The translations under genes were made by a program, and so were the position numbers. The notes below the pieces were generated by a model. The model was given only the letters and a program-made list of their open reading frames with translations, was not told the origin of the DNA and made no database searches. From Eledone cirrhosa (taxonomy: Eukaryota), in NCBI GenBank assembly GCA_964016885.1, contig OZ024744.1:62992001-63056000 (forward strand): DNA of 64,000 nucleotides, written 5' to 3'. Positions 3,214 to 51,035 of the stretch are shown here, piece by piece. Each line of letters starts with the position of its first letter. Position 1 is the stretch's first letter.

Positions 3214-3275
3214 TTTTATCTGACGAGGACGTACTGAAAAAACAACACAGTACCTTCGAAATATATATAATAAAA
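3214..3275 (+). ncRNA. Type I (minimal stem III) hammerhead ribozyme
   Basis: TTTTAT-CTGACGA-GGACGTACTG..CAGTACCTTC-GAAA-TATATA-TA-ATAAAA: 6-bp stem I, 9/10-bp stem II, palindromic minimal stem III, ATA triplet. Confidence 0.75.
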
Positions 3276-12876: not shown

Positions 12877-12947
12877 GATGTGTTGGTGTAATGGTAGCAC
12901 AGTGGTCTGGATAACCAAAGATGTGTGTTCGACTCCCATGCACGTCA
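12877..12947 (+). pseudogene. tRNA-like cloverleaf (tRNA pseudogene or SINE head)
   Basis: Acceptor stem GATGTGT/GCACGTC, A-box TGGTGTAATGG, anticodon loop CTGGATA, T-loop TTCGACT. Mismatches in the anticodon and T stems. Confidence 0.6.
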
Positions 12948-31404: not shown

Positions 31405-31530
31405 CCCTCTTCCTGCTATTTCAAGCATTATACTAATATATTCCTTCCATATACTGTACCGATTGTGTTGTTATTTCTGTTTACCTTTTACACACACACA
31501 CATATATATATGTATATATACATATATATT

Positions 31531-32215
31531 CTAGCTGGGGTACCCAGCTTCGCACAGGAGAACAGTTAAGAGTAGTCGGATTAAAGAAAAAACGACTGTA
31601 TTGGATGTGTTGTCTGGTATGAGGTGAGACCGTAATGTGTGAGTGTGAGTGTGAGAGAGTGACATAAAAAAAATCAATCATAAAACTTCCTTATTAGGCT
31701 GGGGGATTAAACTGCTAATTAAATGGTAGCATTGGCCTTGGATTTTAAATGTGAAATAACAATAGTTAGTAGGATCTTTTTCAGCTCCAAAGGACGTCAT
31801 CTGAAACACAGCAATATACCGCATAACATTGCTTCTGAAGTGTTTAACCTCATTAGTACAGACTGTAAGTAGTATATGGATAAAAGCTGGAGGGTAAATT
31901 AATTTCAAATAGTATCAATTTTTCTTTGTTCTGTAAAAATCAAAGACTGTAAAACGATTTTATAAAAGCTAATGTAATATTGTTAAACCTTCCTATAGAT
32001 GAAAGGATCTATAGTTTAAGCCACTTCTAGACTTTTGTGGGACGTTACTCTCTCTCTCTGAATATCTAACACTTTAATTGTATCTCTCTCTGTATAACGA
32101 CCTCTCTCTCACTTTCTGCCTCTCTCTCTTTGTGTCTCTCTCTTTAGATGTGTGTGTAGTTTTTGTGTGATTTAACCAACCAACCAATCAATAAATATCT
32201 TTCTTATATATATAG
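31531..32215 (-). mobile_element. Non-autonomous Helitron
   Basis: CTAG plus degenerate GC hairpin at 31531-31560; minus-strand 5' end CTATATATATAAGAAAGAT..(TTGG)n. Confidence 0.6.
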
Positions 32216-32453
32216 TGGTAGAACACTGGAAGGTAATATCCGTAGTGGTAGAGCACTCAGTCCATGGGACGAGTTTGGTAGAAGTAGTAACACAACAGTT
32301 AGTTCACCATTCTGAGAACAATTGTTTCACCTTAGCGGATCTTCATCCGCTAAGGTGAAACAATTGTTCTCGGTATGGTGAACTAACTGTTGTGTTACTA
32401 CTTCTCTCTCTCTATATATATATAGTTATGTAATAAACAACATAAGGCAATTA

Positions 32454-32513
32454 TTCCATTTACCAGTGGTTTCTTAAAAGCAAAAAATTTTGCTTTCAAT
32501 CATCAGAATGAAA
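32454..32513 (-). ncRNA. Type I hammerhead ribozyme, copy 1 of tandem pair
   Basis: Minus strand reads TTTCATT-CTGATGA-TTGAAAGCAAAA tt TTTTGCTTTTAA-GAAA-CC act GG-TA-AATGGAA; all three stems pair and the triplet is GTA. Confidence 0.85.
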
Positions 32514-32666
32514 AAATCCTGGTCAATTTATTGATATTGGATTCTAAAAACAAAAATGCAATCTATATGAAAGTGAGGCTGGAGAAGGAAGAAGGAAAGG
32601 AAAAATAAAATAAAATAAAAACACACATGCAAACACACACACACACACACACACAATTATATACAT

Positions 32667-32757
<91 letters not shown>

Positions 32758-33575
32758 ATACAATAACAGAGAAAGCTTTAAGCTAAATTCCGACTGGTAA
32801 CCATCTCACTCAACAAACATTAGGTTATACGTTAGTATAATCCCAATTTAGTGTATGGGGTGCTAACTATATGTATTTTGTGGAAAGCCAGTTGTATTAT
32901 TTTATATGAGATATAATTAAAGTTAAAAATATATATATATACATACACTCATACATACACACACACATATACACATATATATGTGTGTATATATACACAC
33001 ATACACATACATATACATATACATACATACACACATAAGTATCAACATATCCATGCATACACATACATATATACAACCACACACACATATATACACACAT
33101 ATATATAGAAATATAAATATATATATATATATATATATGCATACACATACACATACATAGCCATACACACATACATATACATACATACACACAATCATAC
33201 CTATATACACACGTACATACATACACATACATAAATGCATACATATGTATGCACAAAATTAGAAAAATATACACACACCTCTACATATTCACACACGCAA
33301 ATAAATATAAGAAAAAATATATATAAAATAATAAAATAAAATAAAGACTGTTATAAAGTCGACAGCGATACAGGTAACAAATAAATAAACAAACACACGT
33401 GGTAAGCAATACACACAAATGCACGTACACATACATTCGTAAAAATAAATACATACACACACTCTCACACATAAATATACATATTACAAATACATAAACA
33501 CATACGTACGCATACACAAATACATACACAAACACACACACACACACATATACATATATACACACACATATACAT

Positions 33576-33618
<43 letters not shown>

Positions 33619-33860
33619 CACATATATATATATATACACATACACATATATATATATATACACACACATACATACATAGCCATACAATTATACACATACA
33701 AATACGTACATATCACAAACACGCACAACCAAATACAAACACACACACATATATATATATATGTGTGTAAAACTTAATCCTAGATAATTCATATGAACCT
33801 TATTTAACTCTAAAATATACATATATATATAGTTATGTAATAAACAACATAAGGCAATTA

Positions 33861-33920
33861 TTCCATTTACCAGTGGTTTCTTAAAAGCAAAAAATTTTGC
33901 CTTCAATCGTCAGAATGAAA
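33861..33920 (-). ncRNA. Type I hammerhead ribozyme, copy 2 of tandem pair
   Basis: Identical to 32454-32513 except CTGACGA (free N7 position) and an A>G change giving G.U in stem II. Confidence 0.85.
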
Positions 33921-34199
33921 AAATCCTGGTTTATCCATATATATATACACACATATATATATATACACATACACATACCTACACATACATTTTGGTATGT
34001 GAAGTGTAAGGCAAAAAAAAAAAAAAAAATAGGGGGAAAAGGAGGGGGGAAAAATGACATAGGAAAAGGTTAAATATAAGGGGAGATAAGGGAGAAAGAG
34101 AATACAAGAGTACAGAACGTGGATTCAGCAGGTAAAAAAACCATAGTAGAAGTAAAGAGCAGGAAAGGAGTTCAAGGCGGTTGAGTTATCATAGGAATG

Positions 34200-35228
34200 T
34201 CAATCCAGTTACAGATCAGATGTGATTTCAGATGAGGACAACATCAGAAGATCTCGGTCTTTGAATTCAGGCAAGCAGAAGTGGCTCTCAAGTTTAACAA
34301 AATCCTATATTTTTTTGTGGTACACAAAGAACAATTCTTTGTGCCCCTTTGGTACTCCCTCGAATGGTCTAAAATAGACCAATCGATAGAGTACGAGATG
34401 TTATTATCCTTGAATTCTCACACCTTACTTGCGAGGGCCGTTGTTGTTCATTTATCGGAGTGCTTAAAAGAAACGACATGTGAGTAAAACCTGGTTTTAA
34501 ACCTGTCCTGGGTCATGCCGACATATCGCTCACTCCTGGCTGGCTGGTTGTTGACTAACGGTGTTATTTTAGCCTCATAAACAACAGATTTGGTGTTACA
34601 TTTGCCCTGCAATAGGCATTCATCCGGTTTCCTGCAACTGCATCCTGGATTTGTTCTCGTATGATTTGAACTAGTGATCTTGGACTTCATAGATGGGCAA
34701 CAAGAGTAACTGATCTTAACTATGCTCCTATTAAATATCTTATAATATCTATGATTAGGAGGAAAATGTTTATCTAAGAGTTCAAGGAATTTCCTTCCTA
34801 CATTAGTTTTGACAGTTAGAGAGAAGGGGGTGTGAACCAAATAATTTTCCTTTTCCTGTTATTGTGGTTAGTATTTTTTTTTTGGGGGGGGAGTAGGTAA
34901 ATAAAAAATGTTTTCTGTAAAACCGCTGTTCTTAAGGGCTTTATTATAATAAGGGGCGGCTTTATTAAAAATGTCTATAGACGAAGATAAGGTAGAAATC
35001 CTACGGCTAATGTTGGGAATAAGATTATTAAAAACTATAGGGGGATGGCAAGACTCTTTGTGTATATACCTAAGATTTTCATTAGGTTTATGATAAGGTT
35101 TAAAAGAGGCGGTAAGTAGATCAAGATTAATATCAAGAAAGTTAGCATTGGTAAGGTTCGTATCTATCGTAATTTTAAGGTTAAGATTAGCAAAAGTATT
35201 GATTAAATCTTTACGGAATTTATCAAGC
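34200..35228 (-). mobile_element. Penelope-like element fragment (RT thumb + GIY-YIG endonuclease; Naiad-like)
   Basis: KISYSCCPSMK, CSCRKPDECLLQGKC, VVYEAKI, YVGMTQDRFKTRFYSH and C-terminal LNSKTEIF*CCPH; stops and frameshifts. Confidence 0.85.
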
Positions 35229-35639
35229 TATATATATACACATATATATATATATAGCTGACTAACAATATGTGTTTTCTCCTCTTTTCATTTTCCATGT
35301 TTTGTTTTTTGTCTCATCTATCTTCTTTCTCTTCTTTCTCTCAAACATCTCTTCCAATGAAGGACCTGCAGCCAAAATAGTAAGACTCTTTTTCTACTCT
35401 ATCAAGTTATAACTAATATACCATTATTGTATATTATTGTCCTCTTGAACTGTTTATCTCTTGTTGACTTTCCTCATACACGCACATATAAACACACATA
35501 CACACATACACACACACACATGCACACATATATATAGTTCAAAATGACAAACAAACAAACGCAGGAGTCAATGGTACATAGTGTTATTAGCTTCACACTT
35601 GGTGAGAATGGAGGAGGATGGGGATATATATATGTATAT

Positions 35640-36335
35640 ATCATCATCATCATCGCCCTCATCATCATCACCCTCATCATCTTCATCATTTTCATCATTT
35701 TCATCACTGTTTAATGTCCATTTTCCATGCTAGCATAGCTTAAACGAGTTGTTCTGTTGTGAGATGGGCCAGGTCAGGTGACCATGTCTTGCTCATACAG
35801 AACTGAGTTTGGCTTGGTTTCTACAGCTGGATACCCTTCCTAACACCAACCTCATTTACAGTGAGTACTGGGTGCTTTACAGTGTGGACTGGGCACCTTT
35901 TGTCGTGACACATACACAACCACCTCACAGTGTAGGCTTGGTATTTTTTGTTGTGACACCTACACAACCACATTACAGGAAAGGTGTGTGGGGATTAAGG
36001 TGGGAAGATAGGTGTGTGTGAGGGGTGGAGTGTTATGACGTGGAATGTTATGATGTCGATGTGTATGGCGGAGGGGTGAAGGTGGTGCATACCAAATGTA
36101 TACTTTAGCCTGTGCTCATAGGAAGGTGAGTCTTCTGTATTACTGCATAATGCCAGAGATTTTGGCCTTTCAGAGGTGCAATTGCGCAAGGTCAATTTTT
36201 ATCACCTCATCCCAAGTCTTCCTAGGTCTTCTGTCAACTTTGAGTGCTCTGCACCTTTTTATACAGCTGCCATCCTTCATACGCACCACATAACCATACA
36301 AACGCAATCTCCTCTCCTGCACAATATATCTGATT
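35640..36335 (-). mobile_element. Degenerate RTE LINE 3' fragment with tail
   Basis: ERRLRLYGYVVRMKDGSCIKRC..RPRKTWDEVI; shared 3' UTR motif; (GAT)n tail. Confidence 0.8.
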
Positions 36336-37136
36336 TCATTACATTTATCTTTTGCCATTCATGTATACTATTATATTAGAGGAAGGAGCTGACCAGCTCA
36401 TAGTACGACAGCCAAAAATACCAGAGTATCATGTTCATTGAAGCTACTCTTAAAGGTGAACTAGTATATCATTTTAAAAGAGCTTTAGAAAAAAAATTAA
36501 CCTTAGGATTAAAATAGTTGAAAAGCCAGTATCTACCATAAAATCCTGGATCAGTAGGACATATCCTTTTACGAAAACACTCAGACAAAGTACAGAGGCC
36601 ACACACATAATAGAAGACAGACCTATCCTGAACCGAAAACACGAGTTGAATAGTAACAACCCACAACTTAATGACTGAAGACAGAATAACAACACAAACA
36701 AACAAAAAAAAAAATTCACAAGCAGTAAAACAGCAAATGATACAAACCCACACATACATAAAACACACATAGATGTGACAAACACATACACACACTGAAG
36801 CAGGCGCAAACACAAAAGATGGAGTAGAAGTTTAAGACCAGCAAAAAGAGGCGGCACAAAACAGATAATCATTGAGGAGCTACAGAATTTGTTAGAAAAG
36901 AACTCTGATAAGCAAATGAATAATGAACAATAAAGATAAAGAGAAAATTATACAGTGAGTGTGCTTCATTGCGACCAGTGCTTTTAGAAAATAACACCAA
37001 ATTTCAGCGCTGAGTTTATAAAAAAATTGAAATAACAAAAGTAAGCTTTATTCCATAGTTATGCTTTTCTGTTTAAATTCATAATAGCGACTATGAATAA
37101 ACAAAGTTAATTTTAACCTGTTGATTTACACTTCTT

Positions 37137-37169
<33 letters not shown>

Positions 37170-37172
<3 letters not shown>

Positions 37173-39137
37173 GCCAGGAGGGAAGCTAGGAGACAAGTGT
37201 ACTTAGCAAGAAGGGAAGCTGAGGAAAGAAAGTTCAAGCATGTTCTACAACGCGATGACCAAAAACGTGAGGTGTTCAGGATTGCTAGGCAATGCGTCAA
37301 GGAAAACCGTGATATTGTCGGGGAGAAGTGTGTACTAAACGACGATGGCACACTTGCCATCACCGACGCTGATAAGAAGGTAGCTTGGAAGTGTCACTAT
37401 GAAAGGCTACTAAATGAGGAGAATAATTGGGAGAAAGGCAGTCTCCCCCATATCGACCCAATAGAGGGACCAGCAGTGTTAGTCGAGGGGAGTATAATAA
37501 GTAAGGCAATCAAGGATATGAAGACTGGTAAGGCGGCTGGGCCTTCGGAAATAGTTGCTGAGGTGCTGAAGGCATCTGGCACGGTGGGACACACCATGGT
37601 CACCCGCATAGTTAACCAAGTCGTACAGAATGGGGTTGTTCCGAAGGACTGGCATAGCAGCATCATCGTTAACTGTTATAAGGGTAAAGGAGACGCCCTA
37701 GATAGGAGTAACTATAGAGGCATTAAATTAATCGACCAGGTCATGAAGGTCACGGAAAAAGTAATAGCGCAACTAATCAGAGAGAGAATTGACCTAGATG
37801 AAATGCAGTTCGGGTTTGTGTCAGGCAAAAGTACCACAGACGCTCTTTTCATAGTACGACAACTACAGGAGAAGTACCTTGCTAAAGGTAAACCCCTCTA
37901 CTTAGCTTTTGTCGACTTGGAGAAAGCCTTCGACAGAGTCCCCCGCTCCATTATCTGGTGGGCTCTTAGAAAACTAGGCGTTGACGAATGGCTTGTGAGG
38001 GCTATACAAGCCATGTATAAAGAAACAGTCAGCAAGGTTAGAATTAACAACGAATATAGTGAAAAGTTTAGCGTAAAAGTTGGCGTCCATCAGGGCTCTG
38101 TTCTCAGTCCACTACTATTTATTATTGCCCTTCAGGCTATAACAGAGGAGTTCAAGACAGGCTGCCCATGGGAACTCCTATACGCAGACGACCTGACACT
38201 CATAGCGGAATCAATGGCCGAGCTAGAGAAGAAATTCCAAACATGGAAGCACGGCCTAGAGTCAAAAGGACTTAAAATTAACCTGGCTAAGACCAAAGTA
38301 CTAGTTTGTAGGAAAGAAAACAAGGCGGCGGTCCCTTCTGGGAAATGGTCGTGCTCGGTGTGTAGGAAAGGCGTAGGTAGAAACTCCATTTTATGTCCTA
38401 AATGCAAAGTATGGGTGCATAAAAGATGTAGTGGGATCAAAGGTAAGCTAACTAAGAACATAGATTTTACATGTGGCCGGTGCTCTGGTGCAATAAGTAG
38501 CAGCAAGTGCCCACAAACTACTAGCTCTTTCAATTGCGCAGAGGGTTCTATAGAAATAGTGGACAGCTTCCGTTACCTGGGCGATAAAATCAGCAGTGGG
38601 GGAGGGTGCTCTGAAAGTACTGTAGCTAGAGTCAGAACTGGTTGGAAAAAGTTCAGAGAGCTTATACCACTATTAGCTGCTAAAGGGTTCTCACTAAAAA
38701 TGAAAGGCAGGTTGTACGATGCCTGCATACGAACAGCAATGCTGCATGGCAGTGAGACCTGGGCATTGTGTGCAGAGGATATACGCAGACTAGAGAGGAA
38801 CGAAGCTTGCATGCTCCGCTGGATGTGTAACAGTAATATACGTGAACGGCAAAGCATAAACGAACTAAGGAAAAAATTAGAGATAAGAGGGATCAGATGT
38901 TGTTTACTCGAGAGAAGGCTACGTTGGTATGGACACGTGATGCGCATGAAAGTCGATAGCTGTATAACAAAGTGCAGGGCAATAAAGATAGACGGTAGTC
39001 ACGGAATAGGCAGACCTAGAAAAACCTGGGACGAGCTGATAAACTCCGACATCACACACTTACACCTCTCCAAGACAATGTCACTGGACCGAGACCTTTG
39101 GCGGTACTCAGTAACAGAGAAGACCCGCCTTACCTAA
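37170..39137 (+). CDS. Non-LTR reverse transcriptase with PHD-like finger (uninterrupted 655 aa, N-terminally truncated)
   Basis: NYRGIKL, QFGF, FVDLEKAFD, GVHQGSVLSP, LLYADD, CSVC..CPKCKVWVHKRC..CGRC, FRYLG. Confidence 0.95.
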
Positions 39138-47152: not shown

Positions 47153-49588
47153 TAGCCGGACGGGTTTGAAACCTCCCCGTGAGTTAGATAGGGGATGCCT
47201 GCCCCTGCATGTGAAGACTGGACCCTGCGGAGTGGAGGAGGACAACATTGTCCCAATGGTCACCAAGGTGGTGACAGCAAGTGGTGTGGAGTGCTAGGGC
47301 ACGGCAAGGCACTACAGACGTCGTGGCCATCCACTGCAGCCAAGGAAGTCCCTGGTCCTGACGGTCCTCCGTACCACCGGAATCTGGCTTCTGCGGCCGA
47401 GTGAGTGGGACCGTCCCTGTGCACTGGCCCTCCCACTATAGACCTTTCCCGCACAGGTTTATAGTGTGCACTCCCAAACCCCTGCGGCGATGGGCGAGAG
47501 GTGGGGGTAACAGGTGGAGTTAACCTCTGGGAGTTGCCAGTCACAAACCCACACGTAGGTGGCCTAGATGCGCAAGTTGTTCTCCTCCTGACCCTGGGAT
47601 GACAGAGGAGATCAGGCGTTCCACCGGGCAACTGAGAGCCCTTTTCAGGGGAGCACTGCTCACCCTCGCACGAGGGGAGGAGTGATAAAAGGAGCCCTAA
47701 CCAAATGCTCGTCCCACACAAAGCCTGCCAGTCTACTGCAGCTGGCAGTTTTACTCTTCCAAGTGGCCGAAACCAACATAATAATAAGAAGAACTTGATT
47801 GTTGGTGCATGGAATGTGTGCACGCTCATCGATAGGGAAACCTCCTTGAGGCCAGAGAGAAGAACTGCCCTCATAGCGAGGGAATTAGCTCGCTACCGGA
47901 TCAACAGTGAGATAAGACATAGTGAGATAAGACTCGCTGAAAAAGGATCAGTAGCAGAACCGAAAGGAGGCTACACCTTCTGGAAGGGCAATGCAAAGGA
48001 CGAGGACAGAATCCACGGGATAGGCCTGGCCATCAAGACTTCACTCTGCAAGCAGCTACCAGACCTCCCAACACCTGTGAATGAGCGGCTGGTGAAGCTC
48101 CGCTTCCCCCTTGACCCATCTCAGCATGTTACAGTCATCAGTGCGATGAAGCAAAGTACGCTTTCTACAGGGAACTCAACACACTCGTGAAGGGCGTCCC
48201 CCCAAGCGACAAACTCATCCTACTGGGGGACTTCAACGCAAGAGTCAGGTCTGACAGCAGCAACTAGAGAGGCGTGCTGGGACCTCATGGCACAGGGAAG
48301 CTGTTGAGTTTCTGCGCCGAGAACGACCTCACCATCACCAACACACTATTCCGCCAGGCAGACAAGTTCAAGACGACATGGATGCACCCCAGATCCAAAC
48401 AGTGGCATCAGATTGACTTTTCCATATGCCGCAGGGGGGACATCCGTGACGTCAGAATCACCAGAGCCATGCGTGGTGCAGAGTGTTGAACCGACCATCA
48501 CCTTGTCAGGACCATCCTGTCACTGCACATCACCCCGTCACATCGCAAGACTCCGAAAGTCTGTAGGCCAGCTTTCAAAGTTGCACGACTCAAGCAGCCA
48601 GAGCATCGTGATGCGTTCGCGGAAGACCTACACGGCCGGCTGACTGCCCATGGACCCCCAACTCAACAGTGGGACCAGTTCAGGTCGCTGGTGACAGAGT
48701 AAGCCAAGGCAACCATCGGGCCGAGGAAGAGAGTCTACCAGGACTGGTTTGATGAAAACTATGAGCTCATCAGACAACTCCTGGATGAGAAGAGGAGGGC
48801 TTTCATTGAGTGGCAGAATGACAGCTCCTCCACCTCGAAGTGCAGACCCAAGCAGCGCTACGCAGAATGCAGGATGAGTAGTGGGAGAAGAAGTCGAGAG
48901 ATACGCTGACACAAAGAACTCCAAGATGTTCTTCAGCGCCATCGGGAACGTCTACGGACCCTCAAGTCTGTCACCACACCACTCCTGTCTGCTGATGGCT
49001 TGATCCTGCTGAAGGAGAAGAGCAGCATCAACTCAGTGAAGAGAGCACTTCAGCAACCTGCTCAACAGGCCCTCCACTGTCAACCCTGCCACCCTCGACC
49101 AGGTCCCACAGAAACCCGTAGTTGGCAGTCTCGACCTCCCCCCCCACGTTGGATGAAGTCACGAAGCCAATCAACCAGATCAGCTCAGGAAAGGCCCCGG
49201 GAAGGACGGGATTCCTGCCGAGATCTTCAAGTCAGCCGGTCCAGCTGCCCTGGGGGCCTTCCACACCCTCCTCGTCAGCATATGGGAGGAAGAAGAGGTG
49301 CCCAAAGACTTCAGGGATGCCACAGTTGTCTCACTTTTTAAGAACAAAGACAGCAACACTGACTGTGGCAACTATCGGGGCATTTCTCTCCTGTCCATCG
49401 CTGGGAAGGTCCTGTCTCGGGTTATGCTCAACTGCCTCATCGCGGAGGACAACCTGCCTGAGGCCCAGTGTGCGTTCCGCCCAAACTGCAGCACGATCGA
49501 CATGATCTTCTCTGTACGCCAGGTGCAGGAGAAGTGTGTCGAGCAGAACATGGACCTCTTTGCCGTCTTCATAGACTTGACAAAGGCC

Positions 49589-50113
49589 TTTGATACTGTC
49601 AACAGGGAGGGCCTTTGACACTGTCAACAGGGAGGCCCTTTGACACTGTCAACAGGGAGGGCCTTTGACACTGTCAACAGGGAGGCCCTTTGACACTGTC
49701 AACAGGGAGGCCCTTTGACACTGTCAACAGGGAGGGCCTTTGACACTGTCAACAGGGAGGCCCTTTGACACTGTCAACAGGGAGGCCCTTTGACACTGTC
49801 AACAGGGAGGCCCTTTGACACTGTCAACAGGGAGGCCCTTTGACACTGTCAACAGGGAGGCCCTTTGACACTGTCAACAGGGAGGCCCTTTGACACTGTC
49901 AACAGGGAGGCCCTTTGACACTGTCAACAGGGAGGGCCTTTGACACTGTCAACAGGGAGGCCCTTTGACACTGTCAACAGGGAGGGCCTTTGACACTGTC
50001 AACAGGGAGGCCCTTTGACACTGTCAACAGGGAGGCCCTTTGACACTGTCAACAGGGAGGCCCTTTGACACTGTCAACAGGGAGGCCCTTTGACACTGTC
50101 AACAGGGAGGCCC
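49589..50113 (+). repeat. 21 x 25-bp tandem repeat inside the RT
   Basis: Unit TTTGACACTGTCAACAGGGAGG(C/G)CC; 525 bp in total. Confidence 0.97.
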
Positions 50114-51035
50114 TCTGGTCGATCCTGTCGAAGTTTGGATGCCCGACAAAGTTTGTGAACTTGATACGGCAATTCCATGACGACATGACCGGGCAGATGC
50201 GCTCGGGCGGAGAGGTATCGGAGCCGTTCAGAATCACCAACGGCGTCAAGCAAGGATGCGTGCTGGCTCCCGTCCTCTTCAACCTGTTCTTCACCTGCAT
50301 GCTCAATCATGCCATCAGGGACCTCGAGCACTGACTGTATCTGCGACACAGACTGGACGGCTCCTTGTTTGACTTGCGGCGCCTGACGGCCAAGACAAGG
50401 ACCGTGCAGAGGATTGTCCTGGAGGCACTTTCTGCTGACAACTGTGCCCTCATGGCCCACAGGGAGTCTGACCTCCAACTCATCGTCAACAAGTTCGTGG
50501 AGGCCTCCTCCCTCTTCGGTCTCACAATTAGCCTTGACAAGACTGAGGTCCTGTTCCAGCCTGCACCTGCCTCCGTCGCCCACCCTCCTTCCATCTCCAT
50601 CGGAGTATGTGTTTTGGGGTATGTGTGTGTAAATATATATTAATATATGTATATAAAAGACCTCCTTCGATCACTAATGACCATGGGATTTGCAGCTAGA
50701 AAGTTCCCCTCTGAGGCACAAGTCCAGGCAAGATTGTCTGTAAAAGACCACCAGTCACCCATACTGACCAGTCTCCGCTCTCCACGCCACCGCAATGACT
50801 GATGCAGCTTGTTACCAGTGACATCGCAATTCATTTCTACAGCTGAATAAAAAGGAGCAATGTGAAATATAGTGTCTTGCTCAAATGTATATAATATATA
50901 TATATATATACATATTGCATATATGTATACATATATATATACAAACACACGCACATGCGCACACACACACATATATATTATATATATATATATATATATT
51001 GTACCGATTATGTTGTTATTTCTGTTTATCTTTTA

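Follow-up and report, generated by a model that had tools for sequence, protein, structure and literature searches.

Penelope-like elements of the Hydra clade, which includes Hydra-1_Obim, are defined by RWK and DKT motifs, a CxCX5C linker, and CxxC and CxH motifs around the end of the endonuclease, without a CCHH motif (Craig et al. 2021, PMC8557442). Reverse transcriptase (RT) and endonuclease are encoded together by one open reading frame (ORF) of about 706 aa, and the elements target (TA)n and show 5' truncation, inverted partners, and an optional tail (PMC8557442). The published Hydra table gives lengths of 2.1–2.7 kb for complete entries and one hammerhead per 3' end; in Hydra-1_Obim, this is a type I motif near the 3' end with a stem III of the kind ACCA-N-TGGT (PMC8557442). 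The Poseidon element PAc of Anolis, which belongs to another clade, has two fixed 3' ends with a tail between them, targets AT-rich DNA, and carries one hammerhead per pLTR that overlaps the ORF start (Frangieh et al. 2024, PMC11167929). The Anolis ribozyme required the protein of its element. The in vitro experiments reported there indicate that two internal priming sites explain the tail, that AT-rich DNA including the element's own pLTR is nicked, and that uncut RNA is the main template; for the Anolis element, nicking of AT-rich DNA in its own pLTR has been proposed (PMC11167929). The role of hammerheads in Penelope-like elements is described as an open question (PMC8557442; PMC11167929).

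Two type I hammerheads on the same strand that enclose non-coding DNA of low G+C content are typical of metazoan non-LTR retrozymes (PMC7229834; 10.64898/2026.07.22.740005), which are linked to Penelope-like elements and have a predicted dimeric folding (Cervera and de la Pena 2020; Li et al. 2026). An origin of animal retrozymes in Penelope pLTRs has been reported (bioRxiv 10.64898/2026.07.22.740005). Their published monomers comprise 170–400 nt (PMC7229834), and the published family consensus does not exceed 972 bp in a search that covered periods of up to 1000 bp (10.64898/2026.07.22.740005). In the known paired-hammerhead system with a long helix II, a short palindromic helix III, and an expected low activity of the monomer, the two motifs are placed either on both sides of the ORF, at a distance of about 3 kb, or on opposite strands. 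As a possible precedent for several hammerheads in one element, terminons were set aside: the passages on them deal with telomeric elements that lack the endonuclease and give no description of the layout presented below (PMC6431247).

A pair of hammerheads with a different arrangement, both on one strand and wholly downstream of an ORF, is present in a 64,000-nt stretch of the genome of Eledone cirrhosa (contig OZ024744.1; hereafter the window). As originally predicted, the pair resides in a direct repeat of about 110 bp (32414–32523 and 33821–33930), whose copies are identical at 108 of 110 nt (local alignment of 110 columns with two mismatches). A descriptor scan confirmed one complete type I hammerhead on the minus strand of each copy, with H17 at 33868 in the inner motif (A) and at 32461 in the terminal motif (B), so that the predicted cuts are 1407 nt apart; the two differences, a U/C exchange at N7 and the replacement of an A-U pair by G.U in stem II, are those that had been claimed. 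Both motifs have the core CUGANGA / GAAA / UH, three helices of 7/12/3 bp, open ends in stem I, and a stem III that is a near-palindrome with a one-base centre. An equally strong match was found in 0 of 100 dinucleotide shuffles of the window, and matches of any strength averaged 0.02.

Folding predictions for the 72-nt motifs alone return the hammerhead as the minimum-energy structure of both A and B (−13.4 and −13.7 kcal/mol). With 91-nt context or within a 1541-nt transcript, the minimum-energy fold keeps only stem II, and hammerhead activity is therefore not assured. When A and B are co-folded, a double hammerhead is the minimum-energy structure (−36.1 versus −27.1 kcal/mol for two monomers). 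The Rfam search that had been suggested as a check found no hammerhead, neither at the gathering score in the window nor at E ≤ 10 in the region 31500–36500; all sub-gathering matches were to miRNA models and driven by microsatellites. This result lowers no structural claim, given that the long stem II is atypical. A genome search with the hammerhead as query (genome size, 3.0 Gb) yielded 816 first-look candidates, which here and below are not copy numbers, with at least 41 at 100% identity among the matches listed.

Features of the window. A, inner hammerhead; B, terminal hammerhead; cuts are predicted.
Feature	Position	Strand	Remarks
Hammerhead B (terminal)	32414–32523	−	Core from 32506; predicted cut between 32461 and 32460
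Microsatellite-rich distal 3' UTR (spacer)	32524–33820	−	Conserved blocks at ~33770–33820, 33235–33420, and 32530–32620
Foreign repeat insertion	32757–32928	−	3' end, with 5' truncation, of a different TA-targeting repeat; lies within one of the spacer's TA runs
Hammerhead A (inner)	33821–33934	−	~105-nt copy of the element's 3' end within (TA)n; core from 33913
Predicted cut of hammerhead A	between 33868 and 33867	−	GUA in the window copy
Proximal 3' UTR ending in a TG/TA run	33935–34169	−	Recurs upstream of A in family copies
5'-truncated, broken ORF	34170–35227	−	End of RT, CxCX5C linker, C-terminal GIY-YIG-like endonuclease
LINE with RT and PHD finger	37125–39137 and 60516–63808	+ and −	Two inverted copies, 91% alike
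Broken Helitron	51764–56480	−	PIF1 helicase and Helitron N-terminal domains
tRNA-like matches	12877–12947 and 25659–25722	+ and −	Probably SINE heads
Tandem array, 49–53 bp	15012–17360		
Tandem array, 25 bp	49462–50242		

Judged by the sequence comparisons, the two hammerheads are part of the extended 3' UTR of a Penelope-like element of the Hydra clade that is present in many copies, targets (TA)n, and measures 3.8–4.0 kb. Module maps of 62 loci (9.9 kb in 20 cases) show a single arrangement, which begins with the 64-nt tail and the leader and continues with ORF, UTR, A, spacer, B, and an optional tail. The entire order is present in full-length relatives such as L074 (5860–9843) and L073, which measure 3822 nt from B to B and about 4020 nt from tail to tail, respectively. 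The latter contains an open frame of 706 aa with the RT motif YRDD and, towards the C-terminus, the VVY..YVG region of a GIY-YIG endonuclease, together with the motif set of the clade (RMRWKA, SDKT, CSCRKPDEC, CSLC, and CPH for RWK, DKT, CxCX5C, CxxC, and CxH). Pfam matched neither RT nor GIY-YIG in the ORF piece of the window, the intact relative, or three database homologues, so that the assignment rests on motifs read by eye. Relatives with a length similar to that of the 706-aa ORF number 911, and the ORF-piece query gave 50224 first-look candidates, other families included.

Other traits of the family agree with the clade. In the window and most of the loci displayed, the 3' ends lead into TA; B is a canonical hammerhead near the 3' end in the layout of the published Hydra table, 5' truncations and inverted partners occur among the mapped copies, and insertions have two fixed 3' ends, with and without the tail. 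As in PAc, the two ends are separated by a tail, but the tail has 64 nt and is non-coding. Hydra-1_Obim and the element in the window have a stem III of the same kind but, in a comparison by eye, are separate families. With 3822 and about 4020 nt, the full units exceed the tendency of the clade towards less than 3 kb, which is not a strict criterion, and in contrast to the Hydra entries, they possess a 1.5-kb microsatellite-rich 3' UTR with a second hammerhead on the same strand. In six loci (L074, L081, L085, L090, L091, and L092), copies form back-to-back inverted pairs, one arm with the 64-nt tail and the other without.

The Penelope-like ORF predicted upstream of the pair on the same strand is real, but it is broken by five premature stops, invisible to Pfam, and recognizable by its motifs. 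The piece (35227–34170) keeps CxCX5C, CxxC, and CxH (CSCRKPDEC, CSLC, and CPH as in L073), is 91–98% identical to full-length relatives at the DNA level, and adjoins a TA run at its 5' end. The window copy is likely dead because it has neither a 5' leader nor an intact ORF, the first half of which is missing. At the other end, the insertion stops about 37 nt beyond the predicted cut of B, in (TA)n and without the optional 64-nt tail. When contigs of four sequencing runs were compared with the ORF/UTR region 33995–35225, the family was present in two runs of unknown kind; the presumed RNA runs contributed a 36-nt scrap in one case and nothing in the other. No sequencing run recorded as RNA is listed as containing the stretch, a result that is uninformative about expression.

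Together with the window, 33 distinct units of A, spacer, and B were found. Their length between the predicted cuts, measured in all 33, ranges from 373 to 2432 nt (median 1222 nt). The UTR block is the next module upstream in 30 of the 33; the exceptions are an inverted partner (L085), a 5'-truncated unit (L025), and one with the UTR further up (L033, the same as L084). Spacer blocks follow each other in the same order across family copies, and the block at 33290–33420 alone had 1313 first-look candidates, the best 40 of which were 89–100% identical. On this comparison, the block of hammerhead, spacer, and hammerhead is inherited as one unit throughout the family, with no fixed length. The 1407 nt are peculiar to the window because they include a foreign insert of about 170 bp. 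The insert (32757–32928) had 2218 candidates at 97–99% identity, with unrelated flanks at all 11 other loci shown; it is absent from the other spacers mapped, its repeat is young, and translation of four loci revealed no ORF in the 1.5 kb upstream. The predicted unit has 25.5% G+C and lies to 43% in TG/TA runs. The original description of the spacer as mostly microsatellite is refined in two respects, by the conserved non-repeat blocks and by the foreign fragment.

The likely origin of inner hammerhead A is a short, 5'-truncated copy of the 3' end that the element inserted into its own UTR, at a TA run. Six copies have no A (L037, L039, L057, L059, L067, and L079); in these, an older-looking UTR segment is followed by a plain, empty (TA)n and then by the start of the spacer. 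The same segment precedes a B-like hammerhead set in that TA run in L056 and in two copies in L084, and the subfamily of the window has A without this segment. A is bordered by TA on both sides, its 3' end coincides with the end point of the tail-less insertions, and the 64-nt tail followed none of 76 TA-preceded hammerheads. Sister subfamilies carry no A, an A identical to B, a GUA A, or a GUG A, and the variants of A are nested, with B-identical forms at one extreme and the most diverged ones at the other. In L138, L143, and L148, A is joined to the older UTR segment in the opposite order, and these copies look recombinant. A GUG copy (L062) was placed inside the GUA clade in one tree; like the three recombinants, it indicates that subfamilies exchange parts. 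The UTR segment of copies without A (L037, L039, L057, L059, L067, L078, and L082) contains a captured piece, which resembles the end of another TA-inserted repeat present in L027, L128, and L131. The UTR seems to collect and carry the ends of other elements. Taken as a whole, the origin of hammerheads and spacer as the 3' UTR of a 5'-truncated Hydra-type Penelope copy, with A probably added by self-insertion, is held with good confidence.

The two hammerheads differ in their fate. From 224 overlapping loci, 252 distinct hammerheads were obtained (at least 170 nt upstream and 140 nt downstream within the locus), comprising 83 copies of A, 163 of B, and 6 unclassed truncations. In this sample, which consists of the best matches to window-like queries (best 40 of 816–1594 candidates) and not of random draws, the cleavage triplet of A is GUG in 51 copies, GUA in 30, and GUC and AUG in one each; that of B is GUA in 162 copies and GGA in one. 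Queries without the hammerhead core (the sp2 and 10-kb sets) returned GUA in all 47 copies of B. A G at position 17, as in GUG, violates the NUH rule (PMC9217987), and the inner GUG site would be non-cleavable. Among the 33 units, both motifs are intact in 15, and the inner site is GUG in 18.

The distribution of variants was compared in 94 copies of B and 55 of A after removal of 5'-truncated copies, with site classes drawn by the analyst and P values that are marginal. Variants of B common to at least three copies never fall in the core, stem III, or proximal stem I (0/8, versus 22/53 singletons; P = 0.04), whereas the corresponding difference for A is not significant (1/13 versus 7/38; P = 0.66). 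The common variants of A spare all 11 core positions (0/13), core changes common to pairs of copies do occur, and the core of A is intact in 52 of 59 copies. This is allowed by neutral decay over a short time and is predicted also by a helper role of A.

When the GUA and GUG subfamilies are compared, B has a net divergence of 0.015 and A one of 0.041, with 0.023–0.097 in neighbouring non-coding blocks. Private substitutions in the endonuclease region, counted on an unrooted tree with 8 of the 42 copies left out as unclassed, amount to 1.18% in GUA copies (n = 10) and 0.77% in GUG copies (n = 20; P = 0.048); copies without A (0.73%, n = 4) are not older than GUG copies (P = 0.94). End branches are shortest in the GUG clade that has diverged most. 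In unrooted trees, copies without A group with GUA copies (98/98), and almost all GUG copies fall outside this clade. A subfamily order of no A, GUA, and GUG is likely; with unrooted trees and copies without A that are not older, a gain of A and its loss by slippage between TA runs would both fit. Whatever the order, the family has spread in forms that lack A and in forms whose A is cleavable or uncleavable, which implies that it can dispense with cleavage at A.

Short, hammerhead-only insertions of this Penelope-like family are common and both copies in the window adjoin TA runs, as would be expected if two unrelated fragments had landed there by chance with host DNA between them. At 32 further places, however, A and B enclose these spacer blocks, which refutes a chance landing, leaves it with a negligible probability, and bears out the expectation of a single unit that recurs in the genome. 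The original prediction went further in suggesting that both ribozymes could cut and that the Penelope RT could re-insert the released and circularised unit of 1.2–1.4 kb as a retrozyme. The intact motifs of the window copy and of 15 of the 33 units, the recurrence of the spacer as a unit, a near stand-alone piece from A to B in TA runs (L025), and the reported ancestry of animal retrozymes would fit such a process. However, L025 neither begins nor ends at the cut sites, and the junction of a circle (spacer end, hammerhead, spacer start) was found in none of 79 hammerheads followed by the start of the spacer (0/55 in an earlier set). A circle of the ORF part (UTR, hammerhead, tail) was likewise absent (0/76, and 0/30 with a query blind to the downstream side). 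Copies extend past the cut of A in 29 of 30 cases and past that of B in 29 of 30, in agreement with the in vitro finding of uncut RNA as the main template (PMC11167929); re-joined full-length circles would look the same at B. Two copies that begin within a few bases of a cut, L182 (one of 30 tail-bearing copies) and L217 (one of 30 copies of A), were discounted as evidence of cleavage, being within chance by estimate given the many short truncations. Head-to-tail arrays of the spacer unit are absent from the loci mapped, where only 110 nt are repeated. The family also departs from retrozymes in that its units are neither tandem nor non-autonomous and separate from an ORF, with 30 of 33 directly following the element's UTR and the rest truncated or interrupted; in that they have at least three times the typical monomer length and a median above the published consensus; and in that the inner site is often uncleavable (GUG in 18 of the 33 units and 51 of the 83 copies of A). 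A rare circle-derived subfamily could be missed in samples of best matches, of which 40 were scored per search. Nevertheless, a separate mobile circular RNA comprising the stretch from A to B is unlikely, and mobilisation as a retrozyme is largely refuted, with only a slim probability left to it.

The remaining alternatives concern the history and function of A. In the reverse order of events, a diverged, GUG-type A would be old, template switching or conversion would have renewed the GUA form from B, and the subfamily without A would be a product of slippage loss between TA runs. The placement of copies without A next to GUA copies, their unremarkable age, the existence of recombinant UTRs, and changes at N7 that are common to A and B within some GUG elements are compatible with this order. 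It is nonetheless unlikely, because the variants of A are nested, the UTR type with the empty site is also the one that harbours the B-identical A, and end branches are shortest where GUG copies have diverged most. More doubtful still is that A serves as a built-in dimer partner, its core cutting the substrate strand of B in a double hammerhead, with its own GUG site silent, which would keep the ORF attached to the priming end. The near-palindromic stem III and the predicted gain in co-folding energy speak for such an arrangement, as do co-folds of natural GUG/GUA pairs (from L074 and L003), which keep the half formed by the core of A and the site of B, and the sparing of the core by the common variants of A. 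Motifs of this type are reported to be poor as monomers and better as dimers (PMC4209133; PMC6765202). By contrast, the constraint test was not significant for A, whose core changes in pairs of copies, and a stem II change in L073, from the youngest GUG clade, misfolds A in the co-fold. Moreover, subfamilies without A also spread, and the co-fold ignores the 1.2-kb spacer, whereas the prediction for the whole transcript forms neither ribozyme. An equally doubtful extension of this idea holds that self-insertion gave rise to an asymmetric double hammerhead, in which A lost its own cut site (GUA to GUG) and still supplies the core that cuts B; the GUA/GUA pair of the window would then be a transient form able to release a microsatellite RNA of 1.2–1.4 kb. 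If true, the pair would represent a retrozyme in the making that was later suppressed by the element.

Under the preferred reading, in which A is a self-inserted copy of the element's 3' end, reverse transcription would start 37 or about 100 nt downstream of the cut site of B, and the protein would copy through B, spacer, and A, usually stopping early. The template would be uncut (or re-joined) at B and uncut at A, and the spacer would travel as a passenger. A may be a passenger as well, whose cleavage is dispensable and probably costly because it would part the ORF from the priming end; this cleavage may have disappeared, through a change from GUA to GUG, in the most recently expanded subfamily, and B may have been kept under purifying selection. 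If a 1.4-kb cut product forms at all, it would do so as a by-product of read-through.

By itself, the locus is ordinary, a probably dead transposon copy. The presence of the same ribozyme in a terminal and an internal position of one element, however, constitutes a natural experiment on the purpose of Penelope hammerheads, and the retention of the site in 162 of 163 copies of B against GUG in 51 of 83 copies of A points to a position-dependent value of cleavage. Copies with no A, a GUA A, and a GUG A provide natural constructs for a single assay. The family also illustrates how self-insertion may produce a retrozyme-like module with two hammerheads that is not a retrozyme, which calls for caution with descriptor-based counts of retrozymes. 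In a literature search with most subscription papers and Repbase outside its scope, no account turned up of a second hammerhead that had inserted itself in this way and lost its cut site.

Of 211 candidate frames outside the large transposons of the window, 140 were compared with Pfam and had no host-gene match, with one weak match to an RT zinc finger. The descriptor scan of the window also detected three more type I hammerhead-like motifs that belong to other families, at 3220 (+), 31373 (+), and 6499 (−). A TA-flanked repeat on the plus strand (~35240–35500) adjoins the 5' end of the element and contains a decayed hammerhead-like stretch (~35355–35390), on the strand opposite to that of the element. 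Directly past the 3' end of the element lies a near-perfect hairpin of 131 bp (32280–32410), whose arms recur next to TA runs in six other loci (L001, L005, L020, L045, L075, and L083) and which is therefore a fold-back piece of another repeat.
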